The notes beneath the pieces are model-generated. The model had not been told where the DNA came from, ran no database searches, and was given only the letters and a program-made list of their open reading frames with translations. 64,000 nucleotides of DNA from Rhizaria sp. SCN 62-66 (lineage: Eukaryota): contig MEDY01000004.1 of assembly GCA_001724265.1 (NCBI GenBank), positions 124,001 through 188,000 on the forward strand, in the 5' to 3' direction. The position numbers and the translations under genes were made by a program. Positions 3,402 through 59,079 of this stretch are shown piece by piece. Numbering within the stretch: the first letter of the stretch is position 1; the number at the start of each line of letters is the position of its first letter.

Positions 3402-3663
3402 TCACCGCGCGGCCCTCTTGGTGAAAACCATCGGTGCGGGCTGCAGCAGCCCGTCGAGCGGCTCTACGGCCGAGTCGAACAGCCCGCCGCGCGCGCCCTG
3501 CCCCGCGAGCGCGCGCAGCACCGCGCCCTCGACGCCCGCGCTCGCCTGCGCGCGCGCCGTGTCATGCGCGTGTGCGTGCGCGTGCGTTGGCGCCGGCCAG
3601 TCGCCGTAGCTGTCGCCACCGGGAGGCAGCGCGCCGCGGCTGGGGTCGCCCCACGCTTGGCGC

Positions 3664-3717
<54 letters not shown>

Positions 3718-6700: not shown

Positions 6701-7243
6701 CCACCGCGGCAGTGCCCAGCACGCGTGCCGGCTGCGTCGCAGAGAGCGAGGTTCCGGGGGCCGCAAACGCGGGGTCGGCCAGGTCGACGAGCATGGCGTA
6801 GAGCGGGAGCTGCGTGAGGACGGCGGCGAGCGAGCTCTCGCCCAGCCGCATAAGGCAGGACTTGCCGCGCTGGAACTCGATCACGCTGCGGGGCAGCACG
6901 TCCGCGTTGGGCAGCAGGTCCGCGGCCGCGGCAGAGGCCAACACGCGTGGAGCAGGGTCTAGTGGCTGGACCACAATCGCGGGGAAGTCGAGCAGATGGA
7001 ACGACACGGCGGGGCGTGTTAGACCGGAGGCATCTGTGACGCAATGTGGAGTGGGGGGTCAGATGTGGTGTGAGTTGAGTGAGGTTTTTGATATGAACAG
7101 CTGTAAACGATGTGTTAGGCACTATAAATCATCTTTCAGACATTAATAAAACATTAAATTGACGTACTCTATGTTGGGAAGGCGACCCAGTGGACGAAGA
7201 GCTCCAGAGTGAAGGGAACCGCTGTCTCAGGCGCATGGGACAT
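3402..7243 (-). CDS. MAP10: MAP10-like microtubule-associated protein (N-terminal C2-type domain plus long disordered tail); exons 7243-7168 and 7033-3402; ~1235 aa with in-frame TAG at codon 25
   Basis: Spliced N-terminus MSHAPETAVPFTLELFVHWVAFPT*NASGLTRPAVSFHLLDFPAIVV...IEFQRGKSCLMRL resembles the MAP10/KIAA1383 N-terminus as I recall it (FSLELLVDWV...PAVAFRLLDFPTLLV...FGRGKSCLFRL). Phase-1 intron GTACGT...CACAG. Ends TGA. Confidence 0.75.
3666..3716 (-). repeat. (CAG)17 microsatellite encoding polyglutamine
   Basis: Uninterrupted (ctg)17 on the plus strand, Q17 in the MAP10-like frame. Confidence 0.95.
7034..7167 (-). other. Spliceosomal intron (134 nt) of MAP10-like gene
   Basis: Donor GTACGT, acceptor GTCACAG, AT-rich; splicing joins two MAP10-like motifs in frame. 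Confidence 0.85.
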
Positions 7244-7440
7244 GATGTGCGCCAAGGTGGGGACCTATGCAAGTTTAATCAAATATTCAAATAAAACGCG
7301 TCAGAGAACAGTTATTTATCTTGATATGCGATCGAGTAACGGACACTATACGGTGTTGTAGAATGTAACTTGATGCCGAACTTTATGACCGTTAGAGTCC
7401 GCTCGGTTGGCCAGCCTCGACACTTTGAACGACCTTCAAA

Positions 7441-7581
7441 GTAAGTTCGTTTCACATGCCGTGTGAGCTGAATCGACCGTCAATCGGAATGTGCGTACGA
7501 GTTATGACTATATATCATCGAATTTAACACATTTTATTTTCTCAATTCAACCTGTTTCTCAATGTTCCTCTTCATAAACAG
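7441..7581 (+). other. Possible 5'-UTR intron of the gene starting at 7635
   Basis: GTAAGT at 7441, AT-rich body, pyrimidine tract and AAACAG ending at 7581. Confidence 0.4.
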
Positions 7582-7634
7582 ACGTTACTACAGACCTCCG
7601 CGACCAAGCAAGCGCAACGCTCAACCTGAGCAAA

Positions 7635-10600
7635 ATGTCAGCAGACGTACGTATATTATGACTGTTAGACTACTATGATCGATTTTGAACGCATGCCATA
7701 AACTAAAAACTCATTTTTATGTCTATATTGTGTTACAGGATTGGGATATCGACGCGTATATCGAGGAGCGCATCGGTGGGGATAAGATCACAGCAGCGTC
7801 ATCCTCCCCGAGAAAGGCTCCCGCAGGTGAGTTCGCTTACGCCAGCTCAATCATTCCACCACCCTCTATGCAACAAACTACGGGCCCCGCGTTGGGTGGC
7901 ATCTATGCTATGGACGCGCGCTACAGTATGCCTACCGCGGGCCCCGCACTAGGATTGGGCATGGGCCTCGGCTTAGACCCCTCTGGCAACCTTCCGCCTA
8001 TTGCGGGCGCCACCTCGAGCGCAAGCACCAAGAGCGCGTCCGGTGCGGCAACGTCCCGCTCGCCCAGCAAGACGCGCGCCACGGGTAAGGCCATCCGCGG
8101 CGGCTCCGGCAAGTTTGCATACGTGTCGCCGCGCGAGTCGGCCCAGCGGCAGGCGCGCGCGGGCCGCCCCAGCAACAACAGCAACGCGCGCGGCGGCGGC
8201 CGCGGGCACCCGGGCTCGCCGCCGCCCTAGGACCGCGCGCTGGCGCAGGAGCTGATCCGGCGCTACGACCGCGAGCAGGCCGAGGCGCGCCGCGCGCAGC
8301 AGCAGCGCAACGACGAAATGGCCGCCGCGGCGCGCGCGCGCAACGCCGCCGCCGCGCAGGCCGAGGCGCTGGCCCGCGCGCAAGCCCGCGAGGCGGAGCG
8401 CCAGGACAAGATTGCGCGCCACGCCCGCGCCGCCGGTGGCAGCAGTCACGCCGGCGCCGTCGCCACCGGCGCGGTGGGCGCGCCGCTGGCCCGCGATACG
8501 CTGACGCCGCTGGCGGGCGCTGAGCGGGCGAGCCAGGAGAAGGTTAGCGCCCTGACCGCGGCGCCGGCGACGGACCTGGCCGCGATTGCGCCGGCGGACG
8601 ACGCATTCTCGCGCGCGCTGGTCAACAAGGTCGAGCAGCTCGAGGCGCTGGTGATCGTGCAGCAGCAGCAGCTGAAGCTGCACGCGCAGGTCGTGTCGGA
8701 GCTTAAGGGCCGTCTCGACAACGCGCGCCGCCGCACGCCCTACGGGGCCACCAGCGTGTATGGCGGCAGCTCTAGCTCCTCAGCTTCTGCGCCCCCGCGC
8801 GGCGCGCGATACCCCGTCCAGCGCGCGCCCCGCAACGCCCACGGCGCAAACGGCGCCGCGCCGCGCGGACAGGGGCAGGGGCTGGGCGATGCGGGCCGCG
8901 CGGCGCCGGACGAGGCGCGCGAGCGGCGGCTTCAGGCGCTAGTGGACCGGCTGTACCAGCGCAACGCGGGCCACAAGACCGTGTCGAGCGTCGGCACGGG
9001 CGCGCCGGAGCCCGCGGGCCAGACGCGCGGACCGCTGCGGGGGGCCGCGACGCAGGCGGGCCACCGGCGCATCGGCGCCGGCGCGACGCAGGCGCAAGGC
9101 CAGCACAACCCCGGCCGCACGACGCGTGCAGCGTCGACTGTGCGCCGTCCCGCGCCGCCGCCCGCGCGCCCCACCGAGAGCGCGACGACAACAACGACGA
9201 CCAAGCCGGAGGACAAGAGGGCTGAGGACGGCGGCAAAAAGGCTGTTGTGATTGTTGAGCCGTCTGCGGGGCCTAAGTCGGCGCGCGCGCTGTCCAAGCC
9301 GCGCTCGCCATCGCCGTCGCCGCCGCCGCGTACCTCGGCGCGCGAGCCAGTCAAGCCCGCCGCTGCTGCGCCTGCACCCGCCTCTGCCCGGACTTCTAAG
9401 AGCCCAGCACCGACGACTGCAAGGAAAGACAACGACAAGAAGCCCGAGAGTGAGAGCAAAATCAGCGGTGCTGAGACCGGCGCAAAGCCTGATGCCCGTC
9501 ACTCTGCGCCTCCCAAGCAGCGCGAGCCCAGCTCTAGTCCCCGCAAGCCTGCACCCGCTGCGACCGCGACGCCTGCGACCGCGCCTGCTGCAAGCAAGAG
9601 TGAGTCCCCTGTCCCGTCGCCCCGCGCCACTGCGCCGTCGTCGCCGGCCAAGTGCCCCGCTAAGTCTCCCGCCAAGCCTGCCGCGACGAACGCAGCCGCT
9701 GTTAGCACCGCTAAGAGCCCTGTGAAGCCCGCTAAAACAGAAACGAAGAGCACTGAGAGCAAGACGACTGAGAGCAAGAGCACTGCCGACGCTGGTTCAT
9801 TGTTGCTGGCGCAGTCTGCTCTGACTAAGGCTGCTGCTGCCGAGGACTTGAGAGCGCGGTCACAGGCTTCCGCCGTTGCCGCAGCGTCCGGCGGCGGCAG
9901 CGGCAGTGACGATGATTATGGGGATGACTTCGAGAACGACTTTGATGCGGCCGCTGCGGTGCTTGCAGATGAGCCTGTTGACAGTTCGGATGTTAAGAAG
10001 TCCGTACAGAGCGATTTTAAGCCCGCTGCTGCTACTGAAGTCGCCGATGATGTTGACGACATGTTCGAGGCAGTCGACGCGCTCAACGGCCCCTCCGCTC
10101 CTGTGGCGCCGCAGCCTCCGAAGCCGCTGGAGGAGGAGGCGGTGACGTCGACGCGCACGCTGCGCGACGGCGACAGCGCTGGCACAGGCAAGAAGAGCCC
10201 CGAGCCTGAGTCTTTGTCGGCCGCGTCGGTCGCCACCGTCACTGTGCTCGCCTCGGCGCGCGCGCTGCCGCGCCTGGCGGCCGGGTCCACCGCGAGCACC
10301 GGCGACGGCATTGCTGACGAGGTCCCCGACCCCGTGATCTTGCTCGTCGCCGTGCCGCGCGCTCAGGCCGCCACGCTGCGTCCCAACGCGCCCGCGCTGC
10401 GCGTGCCCGGCGCCGTGCTGCTCGCCGCGACGGAGCCGCAGCGGTCGACCGTGAACCCCGACTTCGCGTCACCGCTGCTCGTCGACATCCCCGTTGCCGC
10501 TGTTGTTGCTGGGGCCGCGGCTGCCGTCGGCGACGTTGTCGTCCGCGTTGAGGTGCATCACGCGCCCGGCCGCGCGGGCCCGCTTTCGCCTGCCGCAGCC

Positions 10601-12085
10601 ACTGCGCTGGGCGCCGACTCGCTGCTCTGTTCCGGCGTGTGCCAGCCCGCGCAGGTGGGTGCCCTGGCTGTGCGTGGACACGCTGCGCCCGTCGCAGTTG
10701 CGCTCGCGCCGGGTCCGCGCGCCGACTCCCGTGGCAGCGCGGTGACGGAGCCTGCGCAGGTGCTGCTGTGGGCTCCCAGCAGCCGCCAGCTCTTCACGCC
10801 GCCCCCCGCTGAGGCCCCCAAGCCTGCTGCCGCTGCTGTTTCCCCCGTTATTGCTGCGAACACATCTTTTGTGGCGGCGTCGCCTGCGTCGGGCACGTCT
10901 GCTTTTGCGGGCTCGCACGCTGTCATCCCCACCGCGTCATCCACGGCAGCGTTTGACGACGACTTCGAGTTTGATGACGCACACGTGAACACTGTTCCTA
11001 ACGACAACACGGCGCTCGTGTCGCCCAAACCCATGGCAGCGCCCGTGCCGGCGTCGCCTCCCGCGCCCGCAGCCGTGTTTGGCGCCGCGCCTTCGCTTGC
11101 ACCCGCGACGCCCGCGCGCCCACCTGCAGCTGTGCCGGTCGCTACTGCGACTCCGGCTCAGTCGGCTGCGCCCACGGCGAGCCTTGCGCTGCCGGCGTCT
11201 CCCGCCACCCAGCCCTCTGCCGCGCCTGTGGCTGCGTCAGCAGCGATGAGTGACCCCTTCGACCTTGATGATGAGCTTTCAATGTTTGCTGCGCAGCCCG
11301 CTGGTAGCGCTGCGAACAATGCTCCTGCTGTTTCCCAGCCTGCAGTTGTGGCGCCTGCGACTCCTTCGAAGGCGCCGGAGTCGCCTGCGAAGTCACCGGT
11401 CAAGCCCGCCGCTGCACCTGCGCCTGCATTTACGCCTGCGCCTGTGGCTGCCCCTGTCGCTGCCGTGCCTGCGCCCGTCCCCGCGACTACTACTACCCCC
11501 GCTAAGAAGCCCGCACCCAAGGCCTCGTTCCTTGACCACGATGATGACATGCTCAACTACACACCCATGCCCGCTGCTGCTACAGTCCCCGGTCCTGCTC
11601 CTGTCGCTGCCACTCCGGCCGTTGCAGCAAACCCCGCGCCTGCGCCTGCTCCTGTGCCTGTTCCTGTTGCTTCATCGTCAGTGTCGTCATCATCGTGGCT
11701 TAATGACGAGCCCGTTGTCAAGCCAGCAGTTGCTGTCGCCGCGCCCCTGCCTGCGCCTGCGCCCGTCCCTACGTACGCAGCCGCATCTCCCGTGGCGCCG
11801 TCCGCGACGATGACGACGGCGGGCGGCAAGTCTAAGCCCTCGATGCTCGCCGGACTCATGAAGCCGAAGCCCGCTGACGCCGCCGCGGCTCCCGCACCTG
11901 CTGCGCTCGCGACCTCTGTTGCCGCACAGGCTCAGCCCATGCCTGCTGCTGTGCCTGCGCCCGTATCAGCGCCTATGTTTGCCCCTGCGCCTGTTGCAGC
12001 CTCGGCAGCTGCGCCTGCGCCAGCGCCGGCCGCTGCTCCTGCAAAGAAGGCTGACGACGACTACGACTTCGATTTTGATCTTTAA
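7635..12085 (+). CDS. Uncharacterised ~1452 aa protein: coiled coil, KSP-rich linker, copine-type C2 domain, Pro/Ala tail with acidic-aromatic motifs; exons 7635-7646 and 7739-12085; in-frame TAG at 8228-8230
   Basis: ATG TCA GCA GAC|gtacgt...tacag|GAT TGG GAT ATC. ORFs 7685..8230 and 8318..12085 share a frame and are linked by 29 open codons (DRALAQELIRRYDREQAEARRAQQQRNDE). C2-like segment ASARAL...PDPVILL...TEPQRSTVNPDFASPLLVD...VRVEVHH. Ends TAA. Confidence 0.75.
7647..7738 (+). other. Spliceosomal intron (92 nt)
   Basis: Donor GTACGT, acceptor TTACAG, AT-rich, phase 0. Confidence 0.8.
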
Positions 12086-12309
12086 GCATCCAAAGACATG
12101 CTAAGAAATTTCTTTACATAGCCAACACATGATAAGTGTATCAATAAATATTGTTTTATTTTCAAACGATGTCCACAAGTACGTTGCAGATTATGCGTTG
12201 ATCGCTTCAGTTAAATATGACCACGCGCAAAATGTGTGCTAACATTTAGCATCACACACCCTCGCGCGAAACGAAACAAGTCGGATGAACAAAACAAAAA
12301 GCTGAGGAG

Positions 12310-12333
12310 TTTTTTTTTTTTTTTTTTTTTTTT
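12310..12333. repeat. T24 homopolymer in a convergent intergenic spacer
   Basis: 24 consecutive T, directly visible. Confidence 0.9.
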
Positions 12334-12646
12334 ATGAGTGACGGAAAATTTCTGATGCGACAGATGATGATTTGTGCTGCAGAGTGCGCTTGAATGCTCA
12401 ATTGACTCGACATCGAAGGAGCGCAACAGGAAACCTACGTCATGATGACGATTGTGTGAGTAAATGATGAATCGAACAGTGATGTGAAAAGAAACACGAA
12501 AAAAATAAACTGAATCAATAGGGTATGCAGAAAGTGACGTTTCAATGTTAACAAAAAGCTAGTAATCGATACGATAGATATAATACATCAACACAAGTAA
12601 CCTTGTGAGAGAGAGTGTTTTGGTGTAAATTGGCATTGTGCGCAAT

Positions 12647-15600
12647 TCACCAGACGTTTTTGGCGAGGTGGAGCGCACGGAGCGCGAGCGTGAGATCGAG
12701 CAGCACGTGCGAGAGCGACGTCATCGCGTACATGAATGCCTGCTCGGTGAGCAGAAAGAGTGTGGGGTACATGGCGAAGCCGTCGGGCGTGGTGTTGACC
12801 ATGCGCTCGCGACACGCGTCGTCGTAGCTGTGCATCAGCTTCGCGAGGATCTTGTACAGCTGACGGATGCGCACGCGCTCAGTGGCCCACTCCATGACTG
12901 CCTCTTGCCGCGCAATCAGCTCATCCTTCTCGGAGTCGGAGGAGCTACTGCTGCTGTCGGAGCTGTCGCTGCCGCTTCCGCTGTAGTCGTCGTCAGAGTC
13001 GTCACGCCGGCCTGAACCACTGCGCTGCGGCTGCTCAGGCGGCTGCTGTTGCTGTTGTTGTTGCTGCTGCTGATGGTTTTTCTGCTCGTGGACTGTCTCA
13101 TGATGCTAATGGTGATGACCGTGGTGATGATGATGGTGATGGTGGCTGTGGTGCTCGGTCTTGGCTTCGTCGTGGTCCTTAGCGGCAGGCACGAAGATGG
13201 TATTGGCGCCCGCACGGCCGTTGTCCTGATCAACACGCGCCATGAACTCTTCCAAGCGTCGGTGCCGCTCATCGCGCTCGCGTTCCTTTTCTTCTACGGT
13301 CGCCGCGGACAGCCCGTGCCGCGACAGCGCCATGTGCGCGTGCGAGTTGCTGTGGTGCATCGCACTGCTGACGCCCGGAAGGAGACTCGACTCGTGCCCG
13401 CTAAGGCGGCATGCATGCGCGCTGGGCGAGCCAGTACGCGAAGGCGGCCGCGACAGCGCGGGTCCGGTACCGGCCGCGGGCGCGGGCGAGGGGCCAGAAG
13501 AGAGCGCGGCGCTGGCGCTAGGGGTCGCGTTGCCCGATGCAGTTTGCCGCCACTGCGCAACCATCTCTTGCAGCGACAGATGGAGCGCCGCTGTGCGCGA
13601 GGCCGCGACACTGGGGTGATAGACCGTCTGCGAGGCCCCGGGCAGCGGCGGGCGGCCCGCCGGGTCGACGGCCACGTGCGCCGGCCCAGGCACGCCCGCC
13701 AGCGCCGGGCTTACGCGCGTGCTGTGGGTCGACGCCGCAGGGTCAGGAGACGCGCCCGCCTGCGCGGGGCTGGCACGCGAACGCGCCAGTTCGCGCGCGC
13801 GCTCCTTCTCGGCCTTGCGCTGGCGCGCCTTTACGAAAGCACGCTTGTCCTTAACGCGGTGAATCTCGGCTTGCGCGTCAAAGTGCGTGCCAAACTCATC
13901 ATCGTCCTCAAGCATCTGCAGCTCTTCCAGCACCTCTAGCGACGGCTTTGTGCGCGAGAAAGACGAGTTGCGCGACAGCTGGCGTCCAAATGGCGCCACA
14001 GCAGTGTCAGGTGCAGCCTTGTCGCCGGTGTTGGCGGTCCCGGGAGCGTCGCCGTCGGACTCGGTGTCGCGGGCAGGGGAAGCGTTGCGCGAGCCCAGCG
14101 CCGCACCGCTGGCGGGAGAAAGCGCAGCGTTTGCAGCGGAGCTCTTTGGCAGCGCCGGAGCAGTGACCACAGGCGCGAACGCCTGGCGGTCGCGCTGGGA
14201 GAGGTCTCCTGCACTGGCTGAGTGGGCCATCCCGCGCGGCGCGTGCGCACGCGCCACCACAATCGTCGGCGGTGCAAGCTGGCTCTGATGCAGGAACTGA
14301 TGCTGATGAGTGTTAGTGGGCGCAGGCGCTGGAGTAGGCACAAGCACAGGCGCAGGTACAGGCACTGTCGTCGTTGTGGGTGCGGGCATAGCGTCAGCGT
14401 CAGCACCAGAAACTGGGGCGACGAGGGCAGCCTGTTTGCGCAGCAGCTCGTTCTCCTGTGCCTTGCTAGTTTCGAGCATCGCACTGATCGTCGCCAACTG
14501 CTGCTGCAGCTGCGCCTGTAGTGACGATGCACTGTCACCACCACTCGAAAGAACACCAGCAGCGGCGTCGGGGACAGTCGCAGTTACCGTGACAGTCGCA
14601 GGCGCGGCGGTGGCGGTGGTGTCGGAGCCGACCACGGAGTCCGAGGGCGAGATGACAAGACTTAGCCCCGCGGGACGCGCGGCGACCTGGCCAGACAGGT
14701 TGCTGGAGCGTGAGCGCGAACGCGAGGGAATGACGACAAGCTCAATCTCGCTGCCGAACGCAGTCGCGGGTTTGCCCTTGCTCTTGCGCTTGCGCGCGCC
14801 CTGAGCAGACTTCTTTCCGCAGCAGCACTCACCGCAGCACGCGCAAAAGCCGTTCCCACAACCAACACGTTTGCGCGCGCGACGGCGCTCCTTACGGCGT
14901 TGCTTGGCGGCCTGCTCTGGCGTCTTGGAGCCACAGATAATGTGGAGCATGCCGGCCTTGGACTCGTCGATGCGGTGGTTAATGTCGTGAATGAGCGCCA
15001 TGAGCACGCGGCACGCGGCGGCGACGAGCTCCGCCATCAGCATCGTCGTCGGCATTTCGGGCTTGGCCTCGTGGCGCAGGCGCCCGCCCGCGGCCGAAAG
15101 GTCGACCTTGGCGACCTTGGGCATGTGGGCCACAACCCAGTGATGCGCGAAGAGACATTCCTGCATGCGGCCCAGCACGCGCACAAGCGTGACCTGATGC
15201 GTGATCACTTCGTGCAGAATGTCGCACGAGATGGACCGGCCCAGGAACGCCGGCTCCGAGGCGACCTCGTCCGCGAGCAGCCGCTGCGCGCCGATGGCGG
15301 CGTTGATGCCCGCGAGCTTGGCCGCGACTTCGCGTTCGTACGCGGTCATGAACGACGTCGAGCTGCGACCCATGACCGAGTTGGGGAAAATCACCTTGAA
15401 CGCCTGCCGCATCGCTGAGTTAGCCGCAAACGGGTTCGCAGTCTGCTGAAGCTGCTGCTGTGCGGACTGATTAGCGCCACCAGCTGCAACAGCGGTGCCA
15501 GCGCCGATGCTCAGCTTGGCGCCCGTTGTGGGGTTAATGCCTGCGGCGGTAAGCGCCTCCGCGGCGACGCGCTCAGCCTCTTCGGCAGCGGACGGCGCGA

Positions 15601-22577: not shown

Positions 22578-23442
22578 TGCGGAATGACGGCCAGGGAGCT
22601 GGAGTAAGGCGAGGGTCCCGAGGCAGCTGGTGTGGCGACACGCCTGCATTTTTTTTTCGGGCAGGTTTTTGAAGGGCAAAAGAGAGCAGGGAAAGGTGTG
22701 AGCAGGTCCGTAAACACATATTGTAGATGGGGAACACACGATTTTGGAGTTAGAGTGTTGGAAGAGCTGTTAAGACATGGATAAACCGAGAGGTTTGTCA
22801 CCTCCCACCCCCTGGCGATGGACATGATGACGATTTGCGCGTGGACGTGGAAAACCATAAGCAGACAGAAAATTATAAAAGCACAGTAGAGAACCTCCAT
22901 AAAATGCACTATCTTTAAATCAACAGATCGCATTGACGTGTCGCTGCACTGCATTTGACTCAAATAGTTACCTCAACTCTCCCGATTCTTTTTAGCGACT
23001 GGCAGCCATAGTGCAGCCATAGACAGTCTACGGACTCGGTCACGCGCAGAATTGGTGCTATTTGATCACGAGTACAATACCAATAATACGATGTACAAGC
23101 AATAGATCTAGATATAATGTTAGACATACATATCATTACATATAAGTACATAATATGGAGTAAAATTCCTCATATAAGACGAAAACGTTGCGTGTTAAAA
23201 GAAATTGGTGACGGCGGACTTTGGGAGTTAACAGCGCGACTCTTAGCTGTCGATACGAGCATGACTTGTAGTTCTCAGGAATTCAATGCGTAAAGGGAAC
23301 TATAATGCAGAGAATTTACACAATAGTATTCGTTTTTGATGCAACGAGCAGGTCATTACTTCCAGACGCTCATACTATTCAGCTTCATTGCGAAGTGTCA
23401 CAATTCGGACAGCCCACACTTCGAGTGTGTGCGAGGTAAGCC

Positions 23443-23594
23443 GAAGACCCAGAAAAGACGCATATGCGGCGGTATCATGTTGTCATGCAGCACTGCAAGA
23501 ACAAAGTACACGGCCACAAAGCCCAGGTTGATGCCGAGGCGCGAGAACGGGAAGATGAGCGAGACAAGCATCGACGTCAGGATGACAGCGACGA
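23443..23594 (-). pseudogene. Relic 152-bp fragment of FUSC/ALMT paralogue A N-terminal TM region
   Basis: Colinear, no indels, with 21776-21927; about 26 mismatches by hand count (~83% identity); flanks are AT-rich and unrelated. Confidence 0.8.
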
Positions 23595-23886
23595 ACAAAT
23601 ATCAAAAGACACAGAGTGAGATCGTCACACGAGACTTTTGTTCAGGTAGTGCAAAATGTTGTGTTGATATAATAAAAGATCTATGTATCGGAATATAAGC
23701 TTCTGCCTCTCAAATACGATCAAAATCGTTGTATAATGCAGACATGCGGCGCGTAGAAGTTGACGATGCGCGACTACAATGCTGTTATCATTAGGAATCA
23801 TAATTAAAAGGAAATCAATAGATTTAAATATTCATATTACACAAGTTTCAGACATATATATCGTATCATAGTGCGGTTTGTAATCC

Positions 23887-26800: not shown

Positions 26801-29800
26801 TGCAGAAACGAAGGCATCGGCACCAGACCCGCAACGTTGTGCTCAACACGGCGGTTCACGTCGTGGATTAACACGATCAGGATGCGGCATGCCGCTGACA
26901 CGAGATCCGACATGAGGGTCGCGGTACGCACGGCCTCGCCCCGGATGCGATCCGTGTCAGGGATGGAGGTGCCGTGGGGACGGTCTACACGAGCAACCTT
27001 AGGCATGCGCGAGATAACCCAGTGGTGCGCAAACAAACACTCTTGCATGCGACCCAGCACCCGCACGAGCGTGACTTGATGCGTGATGACTTCGTGCAAA
27101 ATGTCGGACGGAAGACTGCGACCAAAGAGCGCAGGCTCAGACAGCACATCGTTGGCAAATGTGCGCTGGTCCGCGATCGCAGACGACATCGCCGCAAGTT
27201 TAGCTGCAACTTCGCGCTCATACACAGCCATAAAAGAGGTTGAGGAACACGTCGCGACTGCAGTCTCTGGAAAGATAACGCGGAACATGTGCCGCATCGC
27301 CGAGTTGGCCGCGAATGGGTTCAGCAGCGGCGCAGGCGATTTAAACAGACCAGGTGTCGGCACAGCAGTAACCAAGCCTAGCGCTGTTACAGGCATTGAT
27401 CCACGTGCATCTTTGCTGGCAGCCGTGTCTGCTGCTCCACCACTAATACCTGCGGCTCTAGACTCTGCAACGGCTTCGTCATCAGCGGAGAGGGCGGGCA
27501 ACAGCGTAGGACCAAAGACAATCTCAGAAATCTCTGCAGAGGCTGCTGAATGGTTATTGAGCAGGTGTAGGTTGAGCTCAAGACAAGATACCGATTCCTT
27601 GAGCACACGTGCAATACGCTTAAAAGCGCTTGTCTCAGCACGTTCGGGCCACATGATGGCGGCAACAATGGTGGCTGCGAGAATTCCAAGCATAATCATC
27701 TGGATACGCGCGAGAGCATAATCGTTGGCGCCACGCTTGGGGTCGTAGCCGAGCGCAATTGTGTTTGCGGCAAAGGACATGATAAGACCCATGCCACCGT
27801 GCCGCGGCGAGCTGCGCACGTAGCCTGAGATGAGAGCAAAAAATGACAACATACCGATGTTGGCCAGCGCCCATGTCTCGCCTCGCAGAGGGTCAATTTC
27901 GTAACAGATGGCGGCTGTAACGTAGCCGTACATGGCACCAAAGACGTTACCCATGATACGATTCATTGCCATGACGAGACCACCACCAATAGATTCGGAG
28001 AAAGCAAAACCTACAGTTAGCGGCGCCCACTGCGGCTGGTAAATTGTGAAAGGCCACGGCACTAAGACAGTCAGCGCCGCCACCAAGTGCGCAACAGTAA
28101 TTTTGATCGCCAGTTGCAGCAATTTGCGCTGCTTCGGACCCCACTCTAAGAGCCAGCCCAACGCCTGACGAAAACGCTCCTTGAAAGGCGCCTGCGCGCT
28201 GGACGCCGGCACGACTGGCGCGGGTGCGGCCGGCACCTCACCGTGTTCGCCAACGCCACCCTGCACAGCAGGCAGCTGCTGGACTACGGGCGTGGGCGTG
28301 CCATAGCAGCAACGCTTAACGAACTCGGCCAGCACAAGAATGCAGTAGGGCGCAAAGAACTCAACAATTTCACGAAGGGTCGCCAACCGCGGCGGCTTGT
28401 AGTAACCGGGCACGGGTGCGGGCAGCGGTACATACCGCGTCACTGAGCCTAGTCCGAGGCCAAACAGAGTTTGCGCAGTCACTTGACCCGCAGCAACGCT
28501 TGCACCCGCAGCGGCCGCGGCAACGAGTGCGGCAGCTGCTGCAGGTGATCCAGGTGAGATGGCGTCGGCAAGCGATGTCTCATCCTCAGCGACATCGATC
28601 TCCCCGCCCGCCGCCAGCGTCGGCATGATATCGTCGGCGTGCGCCAGCGCCACGGGCAGCGTGGTAACCAGCGTTGAGAGAGGGTACATGTGGGGAAACG
28701 CATGCGGGGCGACCTTATGCACCATGCGCGACACGTAGCGATCAAAGTTGAAGAAGAAGTGATTCATCACGAGCATGTCCTGAATTTTAATCATTCCAAT
28801 CGACTCATCTTCTTCTTCATTCTCATCCCCTGAGTCTTGGCCTCCATTGCTGCCCATACGGTTCTTGATACGCACGCTCTTCTTGCCAAGACTGTGAGAT
28901 GAACTAGAGCCAGAGACTAGGCGCTTCGGGCCGCCACGACGAGCAGACCTGCGCTTGCGCCCCGCAGCACTGCCACTACCAGTGTTCAGGCCACCAAGGC
29001 TATGTGTGCTGGTGCTGTCGAGCCCGTTGGAGCGGCTGTGCTGGTGATAATTGCCGCTGCTACTACGCTCTGGTACAACGGGCAGCGGCGGCGCATTGGG
29101 CGGTGGTAGCGGCTTATGCGGCGGCACTGTTGTCGACACAATGGGTGTTCCAACGGCATTGCTGTTGCTCATGTTGCTGATGCTGTTGTGGCTCGCTGCA
29201 TAGTTGAGTCCGGTCTTTTGAGCCACACGCTCGAGCGCGACGTCCGAGTTGGAGTAACCACCAAAGGCAGAGAACACGTTGGCGGCGTAACTGGCGGCTA
29301 CTTGTGAGGGCAGATCAACGAATGATCCTCCCGCGGAGCCTGTGGCAACGCGCAGCCGCGTGCGCGTGGCCGCGAGTCCGCCCTCAGTCGCCGGCTGCAG
29401 ACGAATTGGCGCCTCACTGACGGTGCCCGAGCCGGTGCCACTGATGTTGGGTTGCGGCAGCGATGCGAGGCTTGTGAGCGAGGGAGGACGCACCATCGAC
29501 TTGACAGCGGCGTCAACGCGCAACTCAACCTCAGGGTCCAGGTTTGACATTACATCCGCGGCCGCAGCTGCTGCAGCAGCAGAGGCGGCGTCTGCGGCGG
29601 CGACGCGTTGGCGGAAGAAGAGTTGCTTGCGCGTGCGGGAGAAGGTGCCCCACATGTGGTGCAGCGAGGCCATTAGCGTAGTGTAGGAGCCCGGCGTGTA
29701 GGGCGCGCTGAGAGTCAGCGCCGAGTCCGGCGACCGCAGCAACATAGCCGTTACGTCATCGACGTCTTGCACGTCAATGACCTCGGTCCGCGGTAGCGTC

Positions 29801-32800
29801 TCTTGTTCGTTCCATACCGTGTTAGACCGGCGCTCGCGCACGCCGGTGCTGCCAACGCCAGTGGAACCGGCGGCAGAGGGCGCGGAGCCGGCAGACACAG
29901 CAGCAGCGGCAGCAGTGGCCTCAGCAGAGAGTGTGGCCGCGGTCCCGACAATGGCGTTGGAATCGGGCAACAGACCCATTTCAATCGCAGTATGTCCGCT
30001 TCCAGGAATACCAGGAATCGCGCCTGTCGCAGGATTCACGGGCTCGACAGTGCCTGCGGCAACGCCGGAGCGCGGCGGCGGCACGTAGAGCGGCCGCAGT
30101 GTCGCCGTTGCCCCGCCAGTAGAGGCTGACGGCGGCGCGAGCGAGATCTGAACGCGCGCGTGCCGGAGTCCCGGCGCGGCCTCGTCGTCAGAGTCTTGGT
30201 CTGCGCCAGTGTCGAGGTCGGGGTCCGCCGTGTTGGACGTCACGCCCTCGACGAATACGCCGAGCCGTGCCAAACGGCTTTGTACGCGCGCGGCCTCATA
30301 CGCCGCCGCCGTGCCCGTGTGTCCGGTGCCGTCGACAGGTGAGCCGGCCCAGGAGTCTGAGATGGATCCGCGCCGCGTAGCGTCACCGTCAACAAGCATG
30401 AACTCCCCCACCGCGGAGGAAACACTTTGTTGGCGCGCGCGCAGCGTACGCGCATGCGTGCTCGTTGACGGCAGCACAATGCGGTTCGCAGGCTCGCGTG
30501 TGCCCTGCGCCACAGCTGAAAAGTCGTCCTCGTCCTCCTCCTCCTCCCCTTCCTCAGCGACAGTAGCACTGCCGTTTATCTGCATGTGCTACGCAGCGGT
30601 GCGGCGTGACGAGATCGATTGCGAGGGCGGGCGCTGACGCGAAATCGAGCGCGAGCGCTTAACCAATGACTCGGGTACAGTAAAATTGTTGTTATCAACC
30701 GAAGGAGCTCCCCCCAGGTTTGCAGGATGTGGGGGGGCAGCATCACCAAGCACCGCAGCGGCCTGTTGTGCAGCGCGGTCAATGCCAAAAAATGCGTTGA
30801 CATACGTCGCATCAATGGCGCGCGCGGCATCGGACTTGTTGATAATCTCAAAGGCAAAGTCCTTGTATGCGCGCGTGACGTGGCGCATGTCCGTCTGTAG
30901 CTCCTTGACAAACGCGCGGTGCATGATAGCGCCAGAGATGTCCATCTTTGTGATCGTAGTCAGCGCCGCAACCATGCCACGCGCGTTTGAAACCATACCA
31001 GCAGCTTCTGCAAGGAACTGGCGCGCAGAACCAGGGGAGTAAGGGGCCTGGAAGGCTTGGCGCTCTGACAGGAACGGTGGGTAGATCGGGTCCGGTGCAC
31101 GGAGCCCAAAGCCGTTGTTGCGCTTCATGCGCCAGTGGCGCGGGCGGAAGCAGCAACAAAAGGTTTTGTAGACGGCACGATAAACCCAAGATTCGGCTTC
31201 AAGATCAATGACCTCTGCCATGGATGCCGCAACATCGGCCTCAATCTTATCGATGAGGAAGCGCGCCTCCTTGATGAAAAGGTATGTAAAGGGCGACGAC
31301 ACAGTGTTGGTGTTGGCCGTCGCATAGTGCACACCACGCAGTCCCTGCATCTCGTGCATCTTATCCAGCTCGCGCCCGCTGCCGCGCAGAGAACCCCGTG
31401 CACTCGCCAGCTGCCGCTGCTTAAAGTTGCTCTCCACAGTCTTTGGTGGACCACGGGCGCCAGCAAGCACGGCCGCGGCGACTTCAGCTGCATCAGAAGC
31501 GGCGAGCGCGGCGGCGCTGACGGGAGCGACCACATTGGCGGGGTTGGCAATGTAGATGCCGCTGCTGCTGCGACCCAGCTGTATGCCCGGAAGAGGCTTC
31601 TCCGAGCCGGTCTGCGAGTGCGACTCGGAGCGCGCCCGGTCAGAAGCCAACGGCTGTGGAGACACGGGCGAAAACAGTTCACCAGGCGGAGGCAGCGGAG
31701 CTTTATTATTGCTCTTCGCACTCTTTTGCGAAGCACCTGAGTTAGAGCGCGCATCCCTCGTTGCAGTCGTGTTGCTCACAGCATGCGGGGGTGACACACC
31801 GGGAAAGTCATCACCCTCATCTGATGAGCTAATTGCACCGAGAGAATCCGCGCGCCGGACGCGCGGATCTGCGCGGTCTCCATCCGCGAAGCCACTGCTG
31901 TCAAAGTCATCGTCGCCGTCGCCGATGGGCGAGAACACTGCGTCAGAGTCTCCGCTCAGCGAATAGTCGAGCTGTGCAGCGGCGCCACGCTCAGCGTCGA
32001 GATCGGCGCTAGGTGCGGCCGCAGTGCGCGGGGCGGAGCGCGTCTCGGCCACAGGCGATGTCAGTGCAAAAGGCGTCGGCAACACCACATGTGCCATTCC
32101 GGACATGGGTGGCGTCGCCAGCGCCATCGGCTGCAGCCCTAGAGGCTCAATCGCAACCGCAGGCGGCTGAGCTGGCGGCATGGCAGGCAGCAAAATCGGC
32201 GTTAGGCCCAGACCGCCGGGGCCAGAAACAAGGGGCACAGGGACACCAGCAGCTGGGACAGTCGTCGCAGCAGGAACTATCGATGCAGGGATGGAGAGGG
32301 GGGCAACAGCTGGCGACGCGCGCGATTGCGGGGCGGCAAACGCGCCAGCACTCAGGGGACCCGCGCGCGGTGACGGCACCACGGCCTGTGGCAGCGTGAC
32401 AGTGGGCGGGATCGTGCCAGTGGGCGGCAGCGTAAGCATCGCCGGCAGCGTTAGCGGGACGGTGCCCGCGAGCGGCAGCACGCCGACGCCACCCAGAGGC
32501 AGGCCGAAGGAGGCGGCGTCGGGCAACGGCAGCGGCGGCGAGAGCACTGCACCCGTGGTCAGGTGAGGCTGCTGCGCGAGAGCGTTTGGGGGCATCGGCA
32601 TGGCACTTCCGCGAGGGAGCACTCCCAACGGCAGCGCAGTCTGCGGCAACGTGAGCTGGACAGGTGATGCGGAGTGCACTGGCAGCGCAGGGTTTAGTAG
32701 GCCGGACTGCGGAAGCGCGCCAGGCTGCAGCGGCACATGCGGCATAAGCGGTGAGAAAGCAGGCGACCCATGAAATTGCGGCCACACCGGCGCCGGCGCG

Positions 32801-34860
32801 CCGCTAGGACCGCCCGTCGGCGCAGTCCCCACGGGCAGCGGCGCCGCGGTGCCGGCGGAGAGTGAAGAGACGCCTGTGATGCCAACACCGCCGGACCCAG
32901 GGCCAGAGCCGGGGCCGGAGCGCGGGTTCGCTGTGGCCGCGGCGGCCGCGCTGACTGGGGGCAGCATGCCCGCGACCGTGGGCAGCGAGCCGGGGGCTGA
33001 AGGCAGCGAGCCTGGCACAGAGGGCAGTGAGCCCGGGATCGTGGGCAGCGAGCCATAGGCCATGTACTGGGACTTCTGCTGACCCAAGCTTTGCGCAGTG
33101 ACCGTGGGCACTGCGCTGGCGGGCGGCAAACCAGCGGGCACCGCAGCTGCGCCAGGTGCGGTCGACTGCTGCGAGTCGAGCCCGGAAAGCGACTGCACCG
33201 AAGCCACGCGCGCCTGCAGTCCCAGTGACAAACCACTCGGGGGCGCGGCTGTCGGTGCAGCTGCAATGTGTTGTGGTTGTTGCTGCAAAGGAGTCGGACG
33301 AGGAATAGCGAGTGCGAGATCAGAGGCGGGTTTCTGCCCAGTCGGCACGGATTGCAAGCCAAACTGCGCCGGATTCGCGAAGGGCGTCAGAAAGCCGGTC
33401 ACCGTTCCAACCCCCAAGCCGTTGCCTGTGCCCGAGCGTGCAATGGCAAGCACGGTAGGCGCGGGTACGGGCGTGAGCTGCGACGAGTTTCGCGACAGCG
33501 ACGGCGAACGCGACCGCGAGCGCGGCTGCCGCGAGCGCGAGCGGGACCGCGACCGCGCACGAGAGCGGCCAGCGGGGGCCTTCTTGCGCGGCGCAACGCT
33601 GTGTCCAGCGGCAGCGCCGGTGGCACTCTTGCCGTTGCGCGGGCGCGCGGACTGGAGGCCAAGCGGCAGCCCTCCGGATGGGAATACCGCATCGACATCA
33701 AAGCCGGCGCTGCCGAGGCCGACGCGGCGCGCGGGCTGGCCTGAGGCCGGCACACGTGCGCCGCCAGAGCCGCCACCAGTAGAGCCTGCGACGACAGCCG
33801 CAGCGACGGCGTCAGTCGTGGCACGGGTGTTGGCGTCGACAGAATCCTCGGCTGCACAGAGAAAGCCCTTGGAGAGCACGTAGAGGAGGCGCGTGGAGTG
33901 AGTGAGCACGCGGTGCGCACGCACCTCCATGTTGTCGGAGGCCGTAAGCGGGACGGGAAAAAGCAGCGCTAGCACGCACATGCCGACGCCGACGAAGGAG
34001 GAAATGAGGGTGAAGAGTGGGCGCCACCATCCCTGACCGGGCCAGACAAGGATGAAGAGGTTACACGCAGCCTGGGACCAGAAGAGGCGGAACTGCGTGT
34101 TAGGTGCGCTGCCTTGAATGTACGTGCCAACCAGCATGGTAAGGCCCAGACCAATGCCGAGCCCCAGCAGAGAGTCGGGAAGCAGCACGGATACAGCGAC
34201 GGCACAGACAGCGGCTGTGACGATACCGTTGAGCGAATAAACAGCGAGACGCAGGCTTGCTCCGAAACTAGGCCCGCATACCATGACACCTGGAACAACA
34301 GCACTATATGTTTTGAAGTAGTCCCGGGTAGCAGGCATGAGGCAGATAAACAACGTGGCGAACGTTGACAGAACAAGACTACAAAGGGGAGAAATGATGG
34401 GATGAAATCGTTAGCATGAGACGCTGCTACAGTGTCTGACACAAGCATCAAACGTTTAAAAGGTCAATTCATCAATTCACAAAACACTGATATATTATGA
34501 TGGTGGATTGGGCTTTGCAGCGTTGAATAAACAATTACAGCGTTATGAGAATTGAATAATTGACCATGAAAGTTTGTCGTACCGGAGTGCACTGTGCGAG
34601 CGGGTCCAGAGGGGCATGGCTTCAAGCTTACGCTTAAGGCGCCAAAACCAGGGCATACGCATGTTTTGTTCGTCGTCGAGCGTTGCAAACGTGTCTGGCA
34701 GCGTGGCGGCAGCGAGCGACGATGCCTGGTGTTGTTCCTTGGCAGATGGCTGAAGCTGCAACAGATCATCCAGCATCTGTCCGGCCGCGCCCGTCGGCAA
34801 TGACGCACCGGGCTCCCCAGCAGATGTAAACTCGCCACCACGGCGGGACGAGTCTGACAT
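23887..34860 (-). CDS. Giant FUSC/ALMT-like membrane protein, paralogue B; exons ~34860-34583 and 34378-23887; ~3589 aa; in-frame TAG at 30591-30589
   Basis: ORFs 30589..34353 and 23887..30585 are in one frame, separated only by TAG CAC. Both halves match successive parts of uninterrupted paralogue A (FCCCFRPRHWRMKRNNGFGLRAPDPIYPPF before; DVTAMLLRSPDSALT...LHHMWGTFSRTRK after). Ends TAA. Confidence 0.85.
32953..33054 (-). repeat. Degenerate 21-nt coding tandem repeat (GSLPxxP, 4-5 units)
   Basis: Protein reads GSLPTIP GSLPSVP GSLPSAP GSLPTVA GMLPPV. Confidence 0.8.
34379..34582 (-). other. Spliceosomal intron (204 nt), phase 2
   Basis: CTC CG|gtacga...gctaac...ccctttgtag|T CTT GTT; position conserved with paralogue A. 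Confidence 0.85.
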
Positions 34861-35482
34861 CACGAACAGGGGATTGCGCTCGTGGCGCACGTCAGAGCAG
34901 ACAAGAGGAAAAGAACGCGGATAGGTTGCTCCAGGTCCGACCTCCAAGTTCCTTGTGATTACAGAGTTTTTCTTAGAGCCTAAGGAGTGAACACAATAAA
35001 AAAGTATAGAAAATGGTGTGTAATGATGGATGATCACATATTTGTTTAAAAATATCGATGCTGTGGCCGTCAATGTGCAAGAAAACGTGAGCCGATGACG
35101 AAACAATTACACCGTCGTCTTAAAGTTTCTTCAGTCACATTTTTGACGGTGATAACCAAAGATTCCTGAATATTAAATGTTCGGGTCAAATAAAAAACAT
35201 TTCCTAAAGACGGAACAAATGTGTTATTTTAAGGTTCACGTTTAAAATGCGTTGATAAATAGAGTCAAAGTTCATGGCCATTCGTGTTGGGATATGAGCC
35301 ATTTTTTCGGAACCGCTCGCGAGAGCAGATGGCGAAGACAGCCCGAACTTTGGCTTTACGCACTGCTCAGATTAGAGCTGGTACATCCGTGTGTTAGTAA
35401 TTCTGACGTCAACTTGGGAGTCTTCGCTCACTATCCTATCTTATTCTTATTTAACTTTTTTATGCGGCACAGCGACAGGGTC

Positions 35483-38989: not shown

Positions 38990-39221
38990 GCATGACTGCG
39001 CGCGCGTATTTGCACACTGTTTGCTCTTTCTCTTTCAATCTCGTTGCTCTGTGTCTTTCATTCTCTTCGATGGGAGCTGTTTGACTCATCTGGCCGGGGC
39101 CGCCGCTGTTACATAAGATCTCACTAACCGTTCATATTATTAATATCTTCAATTGTCCATAGCGTCAATACAAATAAGCTTTATTACTAAGTAACCCATT
39201 GTTAGATTTTTGAAATCCAAC

Positions 39222-39263
39222 AAATTATACTTACGCTTATTTAAATAAGCGTAAGTACAATTT
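39222..39263. repeat. 42-bp near-perfect palindrome abutting the methyltransferase stop codon
   Basis: aaattatacttacgcttattt|aaataagcgtaagtacaattt; 20 of 21 pairs are Watson-Crick. Confidence 0.9.
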
Positions 39264-41242: not shown

Positions 41243-41657
41243 GCGTTGTGCGAGCTTCGCATATGCCTCTGGGCTAGGCTAAGTCATCACGCCCCTGCAA
41301 AGAATAAGATTAAATTCAAAAGGAAAATTGCGTTAGCACACGCATACTTATCGTTTTAACGACAACTGTGATACATATATGATGAGATTATTCGAATAGG
41401 CGAAATACGGTGAGGTGCAGACTGAGGACCCAGTCAAGCGACACTAGCATTTGCACAAATGTTGTGTGTGCGCCATCTATAAACCGTCAAACGTGTGCAG
41501 CATTTGAACCAATAATATAAATAGTATCTTCACTTATTTTCCCTTTTTAATACTCACTAAGCACTTATACCTGGCCCTGTTGCGAACTCCTTAGCTTTTC
41601 CGTTTGCTGTTTCCAACCGTTAGCAATTAGCACTGAGGCACCCCTGCTCTTCGTGCC

Positions 41658-44600
41658 ATGTCGCAGCTTCGTGCGGCCCGTCGCACTCGCGACAGCGACT
41701 CTGACCCAATTGAAAAGGAGCTCCGCGCCGCCCAGCGCGAGCGTGAATCTATTTCCGCCCACCTGGCTGAGGTGGAGGCGCGTGTCAAGAAGGAGGAAGA
41801 GCAGCGCCGCGCTTCTGCCTCTCTATTGTCGCGTGACTTTGCCTACCACGAGAGTGTCGCACGCTCACGCTTCCCCATGGCCGTCCCTATTAACGTGCCA
41901 ACCAACAACCTTGAGCTCAGCTCTACTCTTGCCACTGTCGGCGCCGCCGCGCGCCGCAGCCCGGCCGCCTCCCCGCATCGCTCTTCCGCAGCCGCGACCA
42001 ACCGCGCCGCGCCGGTCTCCGCGCGCGCGCCCGTGCCGGCTCCGCGCGTGCCCATGGCCTTTGCGGTTACACAGACGGACCGCTCGTCGCCGCTGCTCGG
42101 CCCCACGCCCGCCAGAGAGCCCGTTGCCTCCGCCGCAACCGTTTCTGTGCTGACTGAGACGGAGCCCTCGCAGCCACAGTCGCCTCTGCGGCCCTCCGCC
42201 CCGGCTACGGCCGCGCCCGCCGTGGCGTCCCCCCGCAACGCCGCGGCCGCGCAGCGCCCCGGCACCGCACGCCGCCGCGCGGGCACGGCTGCAGCGGCAT
42301 CGAAGCCGCGCGCCAAGAGCCGCCAGGCCGCGCGCCGCGCCACAGCCGTAGCGCCCGCTGCGGCGCCCGCTGCGGTGACGCCGGCTGGCGGGCAGGCGCA
42401 GGCGCAGTGTCAGACAATGTACCAGATGCAGGACGACGCCACTGAGGCCGCTGAGACCGACGCGGAGGCCGACGCCGAGGCGGACACCGAGGCAGACGAG
42501 CACAAACAGGCTCAATTCCCGCAACAGTGCGAGCTCGCGCTCTGTGACGAGGACCCCGACGCTACAATGGCCGCCGACTGCGCCGCCGCCGCTGCCGAAG
42601 AGCTTTGCGCTGACGCGGACGCCGACGCAGAGCCCACAGAGCCCGCCGAGCCTGCCGAGCGGTTCGACTGGGACGGCCCCGCGTTCGCGGCCGCGGCGGA
42701 GGCCGAGGCGGCCGAGCGCGAGGAGGCGGCGCGCCGCGCGGCGGACCCGGCGGCGTGCGCAGGACTTGTGATCACGCAGGTGCGCCACACCGCCAGCATT
42801 GCTGACTGCGACGCTGACTGCGACAGCGAAGGCGACGCGGATAGCGACGGCGGCGGCTTTGATGCGGGGCAGAGGTAGCACGCTGCGCTGGTGCTGAGTA
42901 TGCAGGGAGGCGAGACAGAGGCGCGGTCCCAGGGCCAGGAAGCGTACGCGCTGTCATCCTGCCACGTCGTCTCGCTCACCCCACTCGACTCACACGAAGA
43001 CATCGTTGACAACAGCGTGAAGTACACTAATGTGGAAGTCGCACCTGCAGTCGACCCGGCCGCAGTGGCCGCCGCTGCCGAGGCCGCCGCAGCCGCTGTG
43101 GCGCCCGCCGTGGCTGCCGCAGTAGAGGCCGTAAGCGCGCTTGAGGCGGCGCAGCAGCAGGCGCGCGAGGAAGAGGCTGCTCGCGCGCGCCGCGAGGAGG
43201 CCAAGGTCAAGGCCGAGTCGCGCGCACTACGGGCGCAGCTCGCGCAGCAGTTTGCAGCGCAGAAGGCCGCGTTTGCACAGCAGCAGCGCGAGCAGTTGGA
43301 CGAGCTTGTCGCTGCCTCAGCTGCAGCTGCCGCGCATCAGCAACAGCAGGCGCAGCAACAGGCGCAACAACAAGCGCAGCAGCAGGCTTTGGAGAGCGCT
43401 GAGGAGCGCGAGGAGCGCCGCGCGCGTCTGCGGGCGTTCGAAGAAGAGCGTGCGCGGCTTGAGCGTGAGCGCGATGCCATGCTGCGCCGCGAGTCAGAGG
43501 CGCGCGTTGCCGCAGCCGACGCGGCGGCCGCTACGGCTGAGGCTGAGCGCCGCGCCGCCGTTGCCGAGCAAAATGCCGTCGCCGCCGCCACGCGCGCTGC
43601 GGAAGCCGCTGAGGCTGTTGCCGCCGAACGCGCCACGGCCGCGCAGGCTGAGCGCGCGCGTGCCGCTGCTGAGAGCCGCGCTGCTGAGACAGCGGCGCAG
43701 GCGGCGGCTGAGCGCGCGGCCGCGGCTGCGGAGCGGGCCGCGCTCGAACGGACCATGTCTGCGGCGGCCAACGAGCGCGTGGCCGCCGAGCTCGCCGCAG
43801 CCGAAGCCGCGGCCTCGCGCAGGCTGGCCGCCGCGCGCACCGCGGCGGCCGAGCGTGTGGCCGCTGAGCGCATCGCGGCAGAGCACCGCGTAGCCGACAG
43901 GGTTGCAGAGGAGCGCCGCGCTGCCGACGCGCGCGCCGCTGCTGCCGCGGCTGCTGCTGAGGAGGCGAACGCCAAGGAGCGCGCTCAGGCTGAGGCGGCA
44001 CGCGTGGCCGCTGCGGTCGCCGCAGAGCAAGCGCACGAAGCGCGTGCACGCGAAGCTGAGGCGGCGGAGGAGGTTCGTGCTGAGCGCGCGCGCGCCGCCG
44101 ATGCTGAGTTTGCAGCGGCACGCGCGCGCGAAGTGGCCCTGCAGCAAGTGCTTGCGATCGAGCAGGCCCGCGAGGTCGAGCGCGAGCAAGAGCGCGCTGA
44201 GCGCGAGCAAGAGCGCGCTGAGCGCGAGGCTGTCCGCGAGGCCGACGCGGTGGAGCGTGCAGCGCAGCGCGCGGCGGAGCGCGAAGAGGCCGATGCGCGC
44301 GAGCAGCAGCGTGATGAGCAGCGCGCACACGAGCGCGCTGCACGGGAGGCTGAGCGTGTCGCGCGGGACGCAGAGCGCGACGAGCGCGAGCGCGCCGACC
44401 GCGAGCAGCTCGAGGCTGAGCGCGCTGCTGCAGCCGCTGAGCGTGAGACCGCGGCTACTGAGCGCGCCGCTGCGGCTGCGGACCGTGCCGCGGCGGTTGA
44501 GGCTGAGCGCGCGCGGCTTGCTGCGGTCCGTGGGCTGGCGCAGGAGCTGGGCGCGTTGCGTGAGCAGTTCAGCGCACACTCTGCAGAGGCGCTTGCGCGC

Positions 44601-58958: not shown

Positions 58959-59079
58959 CGTAAACAACCAACATCTATGATCGTTCATTGAGTGTTATGT
59001 ATTGTGTGGTTCTAGATAAACATTATTAAGCTATATAAACAATATCAAAATTCAGATAATAAACATTGCGACTTTGGAG

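Follow-up and report, generated by a model that had tools for sequence, protein, structure and literature searches.

The 64-kb window analyzed here comprises 64,000 nucleotides of contig MEDY01000004.1 (positions 124,001 to 188,000, assembly GCA_001724265.1, filed as Rhizaria sp. SCN 62-66). It is eukaryotic nuclear DNA with a G+C content of 47-76% in 2-kb windows. In this genome, ribosomes probably translate UAG as an amino acid, UAA and UGA remain terminators, and four open reading frames (ORFs) that contain a TAG codon are single genes; we put the probability of this reading at roughly two in three. When the variants with clean and with leaky decoding of UAG are taken together, translation of UAG, with UAA and UGA terminating, appears highly probable. 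The same code had been proposed in an earlier note on this DNA. Within the 64 kb, the core of that proposal is borne out by single genes that run across TAG codons, by the lack of TAG among the terminators of 13 genes, and by one TAG codon reproduced in independent DNA. It is tempered by the rarity of TAG (4 of 18,641 codons) and by the CAY codons (Y, pyrimidine) that tend to follow it, and one of the five sites on which it was built depends on a hypothetical splice.

Coding frames across TAG codons

The window contains 13 coding ORFs, the same number as the gene models of the earlier note, and four of them are each interrupted by one TAG, which is the sole standard-code stop inside the respective long frame. 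On the forward strand, the TAG at 8228-30 (context ccc TAG gac) is codon 184 of the ORF 7679-12085, with 183 open codons before it and 1284 after it. It belongs to the gene 7636-12085, which encodes a low-complexity protein of no Pfam family and ends with TAA. This gene is predicted from its sequence to consist of a likely first exon at 7636-7647 (ATG and three codons), an AT-rich intron at 7648-7738 (GTACGT...TTACAG), and a second exon at 7739-12085. On the reverse strand, the gene P0002 (12647-22216; 3189 codons, ending with TGA) encodes a giant FUSC_2-like membrane protein and carries its TAG at 13106-08, as codon 3037, within a His run (cat TAG cat), with 3036 open codons before it and 152 after it. 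The tandem paralog P0003, on the same strand (23887-34410; FUSC_2/ALMT-like, 3507 codons, ending with TAA), has a TAG at 30589-91, which is codon 1274 (gcg TAG cac atg), preceded by 1273 and followed by 2233 open codons. Finally, the forward-strand gene P0004 (41637-49265; 2542 codons, the first ATG being codon 8, ending with TGA) encodes an Ala-rich protein of no Pfam family and has a TAG at 42876-78, codon 414 (agg TAG cac), with 413 open codons before it and 2128 after it. The measured downstream stretches agree with the range of 152 to more than 2200 codons given previously.

Because the DNA is GC-rich, openness of a frame is by itself insufficient. Across the six frames of the window, 21 stops (10 TGA, 10 TAG, and 1 TAA) are flanked on each side by 150 or more open codons, and 17 of these fall within the 13 genes, in shadow frames. 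What distinguishes the four TAG codons is the continuing codon periodicity: the G+C content at third codon positions (GC3) ranges from 0.58 to 0.98 before and after each of them, in the same frame. At 8228-30, for example, GC3 is 0.94 in the preceding 50 codons and 0.98 in the next 50, with the frame unchanged. The terminal stops of the 13 genes served as a control. After these TAA and TGA codons, the frame closes within 1-68 codons and gives way to an AT-rich spacer (G+C 0.30-0.50, at least 121 nucleotides), whereas after the four TAG codons it stays open for 152-2233 codons, the local G+C content is 0.47-0.85, and no spacer is present at any of the sites. UAA and UGA keep their role as stops: all 13 genes end with one of them, each followed by an AT-rich spacer, and in no case in the window does a coding frame continue across TAA or TGA. 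The earlier statement that no gene contains an internal TAA or TGA is partly circular because the ORFs are bounded by those codons.

The 13 spacers are 121-1670 nucleotides long (for example, 12086-12646 and 58959-59079), and none of them was found to contain a further coding-like ORF. The contrast in composition is sharp, with G+C of 0.30-0.50 in the spacers and GC3 of 0.64-0.90 in the coding regions. If TAG were a normal stop, each of the four loci would hold a pair of adjacent or split genes, the downstream one with its own start of translation. Four of 13 upstream genes would then end with TAG, which is an ordinary share, and an ATG indeed occurs two codons past the TAG of P0003. Standard-code gene callers divide this gene into P0251 (1231 amino acids), which ends at the TAG at 30589-91, and P0249 (2232 amino acids), which starts at the ATG at 30583-30585. 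However, the putative gene pairs have no spacer between them, compared with the 13 real, AT-rich spacers of at least 121 nucleotides, and the same frame is kept every time. Furthermore, the next in-frame Met of P0002 is located about 80 codons past the TAG, at the start of a conserved C-terminal domain, and a homolog of these proteins, P0252, is one polypeptide. Independent initiation downstream of TAG is hence scarcely credible, and the P0251/P0249 split is the expected artefact of standard-code gene calling.

All four TAG codons are supported by the frame-specific GC3 and by the terminal-stop control, and the two in P0002 and P0003 are additionally validated by comparison of the paralogs with each other and with P0252. 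P0002 and P0003 align end to end, with conserved blocks flanking each other's TAG; therefore, the stretch around the TAG of one paralog is validated by the other. The 152 codons past the TAG at 13106-08 hold the C-terminal domain that P0002 has in common with P0003 and P0252. The latter, identified in a library search, is an uninterrupted 2393-residue homolog encoded on a 198-kb contig of another uncultured eukaryote. P0252 and P0003 are colinear over the N-terminal membrane domain, the central blocks, and the C-terminal domain, the last with 63% identity over 84 residues. The ratio of nonsynonymous to synonymous substitution rates (dN/dS) between P0002 and P0003 is 0.19 before the TAG codons, 0.19 between them, and 0.117 after the TAG of P0002 (95 codons), for blocks picked by identity in the same way in all three segments and with saturated synonymous divergence (dS >1).

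P0002 and P0003 are FUSC_2/ALMT-like membrane proteins of 3200-3500 residues whose conserved C-terminal domain measures about 90 residues, and their family has weaker matches in Thecamonas and Salpingoeca. Another homolog, P0253 (951 residues, on a 95-kb contig), is uninformative with respect to TAG: it ends early, and its tail resembles read-through into an intron. A metagenome scan with the paralog alignment identified no related DNA, and scans of genome contigs and of viral contigs for related DNA likewise yielded none. The corresponding metagenome scan with an alignment of Utp21, another protein encoded in the window, recovered only three distant loci (L001-L003, 25-28% identity), which were not used.

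Under the standard code, the TAG codons could be disabling lesions, such as recent nonsense mutations or null alleles, or else assembly errors. The spacer between the paralogs holds, at 23398-23601 (reverse strand), the decayed remnant of the membrane segment at the N terminus of P0002 (70% identity over 53 residues, E = 1e-23). In this remnant, C>T or G>A accounts for 18 of the 31 nucleotide differences, and therefore the local non-coding DNA drifts to AT. Given such a GC-to-AT bias and GC3-rich codons, CAG to TAG would be the likeliest nonsense change. Nevertheless, each of the four affected genes (of 13) would have been struck exactly once and always by TAG, with no frameshift and no further stop over as many as 2233 codons downstream, and both conserved paralogs would have to be null. 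An assembly error is further opposed by data from another study. The comparison with independent contigs covered 20 kb and took in the site 30589-91, with 13106 in a stretch skipped as a repeat and 8228 and 42876 outside; the matches listed comprise 32 of 739 pieces. A contig of run X3, which consists of DNA from that other study, carries the TAG at 30589-91 unaltered (29603-31841; 0 differences over 2.2 kb). We consider lesions or assembly errors very improbable. All contig joints among the matches listed have sides of 20-25 letters and were taken as spurious.

A fifth in-frame TAG was reported in the earlier note at 7169-71 on the reverse strand, in the AT-rich spacer upstream of the gene 3402-7058. 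Unlike the other four, each of which is a single interruption of a long frame, this site is unconfirmed. Without splicing, it is in frame with no long ORF, and a further stop occurs four codons on. It comes into frame only given a hypothetical first exon at 7243-7168 (ATG at 7243), a GTACGT donor from 7167, and a CACAG acceptor ending at 7034. This splice leads into the frame in which the GC3 signal is seen from about 6950 downward, and a stronger-looking acceptor ending at 7101 yields the wrong frame. The exon 7243-7168 could equally be an upstream ORF that terminates at the TAG at 7169-71. The divergent neighbor genes in this region (7636-7738 and 7243-7034) may each open with a very short exon and an AT-rich intron with a GTACGT donor, which is clear from the sequence for the first and hypothetical for the second.

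Rarity and context of TAG

Several observations weigh against translation of UAG as an ordinary sense codon. The case is built on four codons in 64 kb. The claim that no gene ends with TAG is correct for this window (6 TAA, 7 TGA, 0 TAG); however, if TAG were expected to account for 20-30% of terminators, its lack in 13 genes would be statistically weak (P of roughly 0.01-0.05). TAG is also the rarest of all codons, with 4 occurrences among 18,641, followed by ATA with 15; a freely used synonym of the Gln codons CAA (116) and CAG (597) would be expected to be far commoner. A His codon comes directly after three of the four TAG codons (CAT at 13103-13105, CAC at 30586-30588 and at 42879-42881) and GAC after the fourth (8231-8233), although no dependence on context should be seen in a codon that is fully reassigned. 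All four are located in poorly conserved linkers, so that no amino acid is readable from the alignments; Ser is opposite both paralog TAG codons, where the alignment is unreliable. Among the matches listed (runs X5 and X8), no RNA contig bridges a TAG, the nearest X5 contig ending at about 30532. A protein search with the region around the TAG of P0003 produced no match, the query being dominated by low-complexity words.

The preference for CAY after TAG has P of about 5e-5 (n=4), given that His makes up 2.3% of the background and prior to any correction for its having been chosen post hoc; for C in the +4 position of at least three of the four sites, P = 0.066. The terminal stops of the window are mostly followed by a purine (10 of 13), namely, G in eight genes and A in two. 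In eukaryotes, C in the +4 position is the weakest context for termination, and a stop followed by C-A is weak. The CAY context may be a requirement or chance, and with n=4 it is a lead only.

These features bear most directly on an ambiguous code, in which eRF1 still partly recognizes UAG, and a suppressor or near-cognate tRNA (transfer RNA) reads it through, mainly where C-A follows. Such a state would correspond to a reassignment still under way or to an unusually widespread form of programmed readthrough. It would fit the extreme rarity of TAG and the CAY codons after three of the four sites, given that terminal stops are mostly followed by G or A. The model-dependent TAG at 7169-71, which is followed by A, could accordingly be a genuine stop of an upstream ORF. 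Against leaky decoding, none of the 13 genes ends with TAG, and the extensions of 152-2233 codons include essential-looking domains, low-efficiency readthrough being an odd way to make a transporter. The sample is, moreover, only four sites. The six-base motif CARYYA follows the stop in programmed readthrough of the tobacco mosaic virus type. None of the four sites fully matches this motif, three of them sharing with it only C-A at +4/+5, and no stable RNA structure was detected 3' of the TAG codons (z-scores against shuffled sequences of 0.62, -0.29, -0.70, and 0.03). On balance, leaky decoding appears unlikely, but it deserves to be kept in mind when UAG is interpreted as a sense codon.

Alternatively, the TAG codons could be present in the DNA and absent from the mRNA, owing to editing (for example, A-to-I, converting UAG to UGG) or to unconventional excision before translation. 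A-to-I editing of UAG to UGG occurs in some filamentous fungi, and all interrupting stops in the window are TAG, the one stop that such editing can mend; the lack of bridging RNA contigs noted above is compatible with such repair. However, the Utp21 protein encoded in the window is only about 30-35% identical to its fungal homologs, and we know of no stop-repairing RNA editing system outside a few fungal groups. Where RNA contigs are listed on the TAG-containing genes, they equal the DNA, with 0 differences and 0 gaps among these matches. Excision is likewise poorly compatible with the surroundings of the TAG codons, which are exon-like in composition. A donor-like GTRHGT motif is lacking in the 400 nucleotides upstream of three of the four sites, including 8228-30, and occurs at -214 of the fourth; around the TAG codons, no in-frame GT..AG intron with the features of this genome (AT-rich, with a GTACGT or GTGAGT donor) was found. 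Introns are nearly absent from the genes of the window, the one clear case being the short intron at 7648-7738. Repair at the RNA level is thus highly unlikely.

If UAG is translated, it would most likely be decoded by a suppressor-type tRNA with the anticodon CUA, which would be unable to read UAA, and the recognition of UAG by eRF1 would be weakened, as in other UAG-only nuclear codes. The products of the TAG-containing genes would need the part encoded downstream of TAG. Our best guess for the decoded amino acid is Gln, because CAG codons are numerous, one C>T transition, the kind of change that dominates the local non-coding decay, converts CAG to TAG, and UAG=Gln is recurrent elsewhere. 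The sparing use of UAG suggests that the reassignment is young or that the codon is decoded inefficiently; together with the CAY context, the rarity of TAG is as compatible with a young or leaky (ambiguous) reassignment as with a complete one.

Genes of the window and the lineage

Apart from the TAG-containing genes, the window encodes homologs of Utp21/WDR36, an Hsp70-family ATPase, CHMP2A/Vps2, a lipoate/biotin ligase-family protein, a methyltransferase, and a TPR protein; it also encodes several large low-complexity proteins. A perfect microsatellite, (GCT)x17.7, is located at 3665-3717 within the gene 3402-7058. Searches of the 64 kb for tRNA genes and for Rfam families detected neither, and eRF1 is not among the genes of the window. 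DNA of the window is also present in bioreactor and wastewater metagenomes from several studies.

The closest relatives of the window Utp21 are metagenome proteins with 76% and 50% identity, followed, at 40%, by a sequence filed in the EukProt transcriptome set of Ploeotia vitrea, which may be a contaminant in that set. Identity to the homologs from named plants, oomycetes, fungi, and Thecamonas is about 30-35%, with the best of the named matches at about 34-35%. In a quick tree of Utp21, the window sequence falls in a clade of seven, along with environmental sequences and the sequence filed under Ploeotia vitrea, apart from Trypanosoma. For CHMP2A, the best named matches outside plants are the rhizarians Nonionella, Spongospora, and Plasmodiophora (56-57% identity). 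The CHMP2A tree includes only plants, these three rhizarians, and environmental sequences, and for this reason cannot place the organism; the CHMP2A sequence similarity gives a weak hint of Rhizaria.

UAG-only codes and implications

Nuclear codes in which UAG alone is reassigned are known from a handful of lineages, namely, exLh, Iotanema, Scotinosphaera, Protocruzia, and some phyllopharyngean ciliates (PMC5304391, PMC11687900). In the rhizarian exLh (Sainouroidea), as described by Panek et al. 2017 (PMC5304391), UAG encodes Leu, and UAA and UGA are stops; 384 in-frame UAG codons were reported in 71 genes, and UAG is the commonest Leu codon in proteasome genes. The case presented here resembles exLh in that UAG alone is probably reassigned, the other two stops are kept, and the code of an uncultured protist was recognized by in-frame UAG codons. 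In contrast to the heavy use of UAG in exLh, the window has 4 TAG codons among 18,641, and a kinship to Sainouroidea would be speculative. In Iotanema spirale (Fornicata), UAG alone encodes Gln and accounts for about 8% of the Gln codons, according to the same article (PMC5304391). Gln is the best guess for our UAG-only reassignment too, but even the modest use of UAG in Iotanema exceeds that in the window, where UAG would make up about 0.6% of the Gln codons (4 vs 713); furthermore, the organism studied here is GC-rich and belongs to another lineage.

Further UAG-only codes are described by McGowan et al. 2024 (PMC11687900) in Phyllopharyngea ciliates (Leu, and Gln twice), in Protocruzia (Gln), and in the green alga Scotinosphaera (Ser), with genes for tRNA(CUA) found in two metagenome-assembled genomes of such cases. 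Like the present one, these are independent UAG-only reassignments recognized in metagenome assemblies, and their tRNA(CUA) corresponds to the decoding mechanism suggested above. They are based on genome-wide Codetta/Pfam analysis and tRNAs, whereas the present case is based on one 64-kb window. Ambiguous codes, in which a stop codon is read as sense depending on position or context, are known in Condylostoma, Parduczia, karyorelicts, and Blastocrithidia (PMC5304391), and the CAY bias observed here hints at a similar context dependence. In those organisms, however, the same codon also terminates, whereas in the window none of the 13 terminators is TAG and one codon is affected. A full-text literature search, supplements aside, for a wastewater or euglenid case with UAG as a sense codon found none. 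If genome-wide tests hold, the window organism would be a new case of a rare, already known type of code variant.

As a tentative possibility, the genome may sit in an ambiguous intermediate stage, in which UAG no longer serves as a terminator and is translated solely in the weakest termination context (UAG followed by CA), at about 0.02% of the codons and in long, weakly biased genes. If so, such an intermediate would speak against simple codon capture under AT pressure as what drove the reassignment, because in a GC-rich genome mutation pressure should make TAG, rather than TAA, the favored stop.

Until the code is set, standard-code annotations of the window organism and of similar metagenomic eukaryotes are wrong, with at least one gene already split (P0251 and P0249). 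If translation of UAG in this GC-rich, intron-poor wastewater protist is true, it would provide a further independent data point on the uncoupling of UAA and UAG, and the very low use of UAG, combined with its possible context bias, could make intermediate steps of codon reassignment observable.

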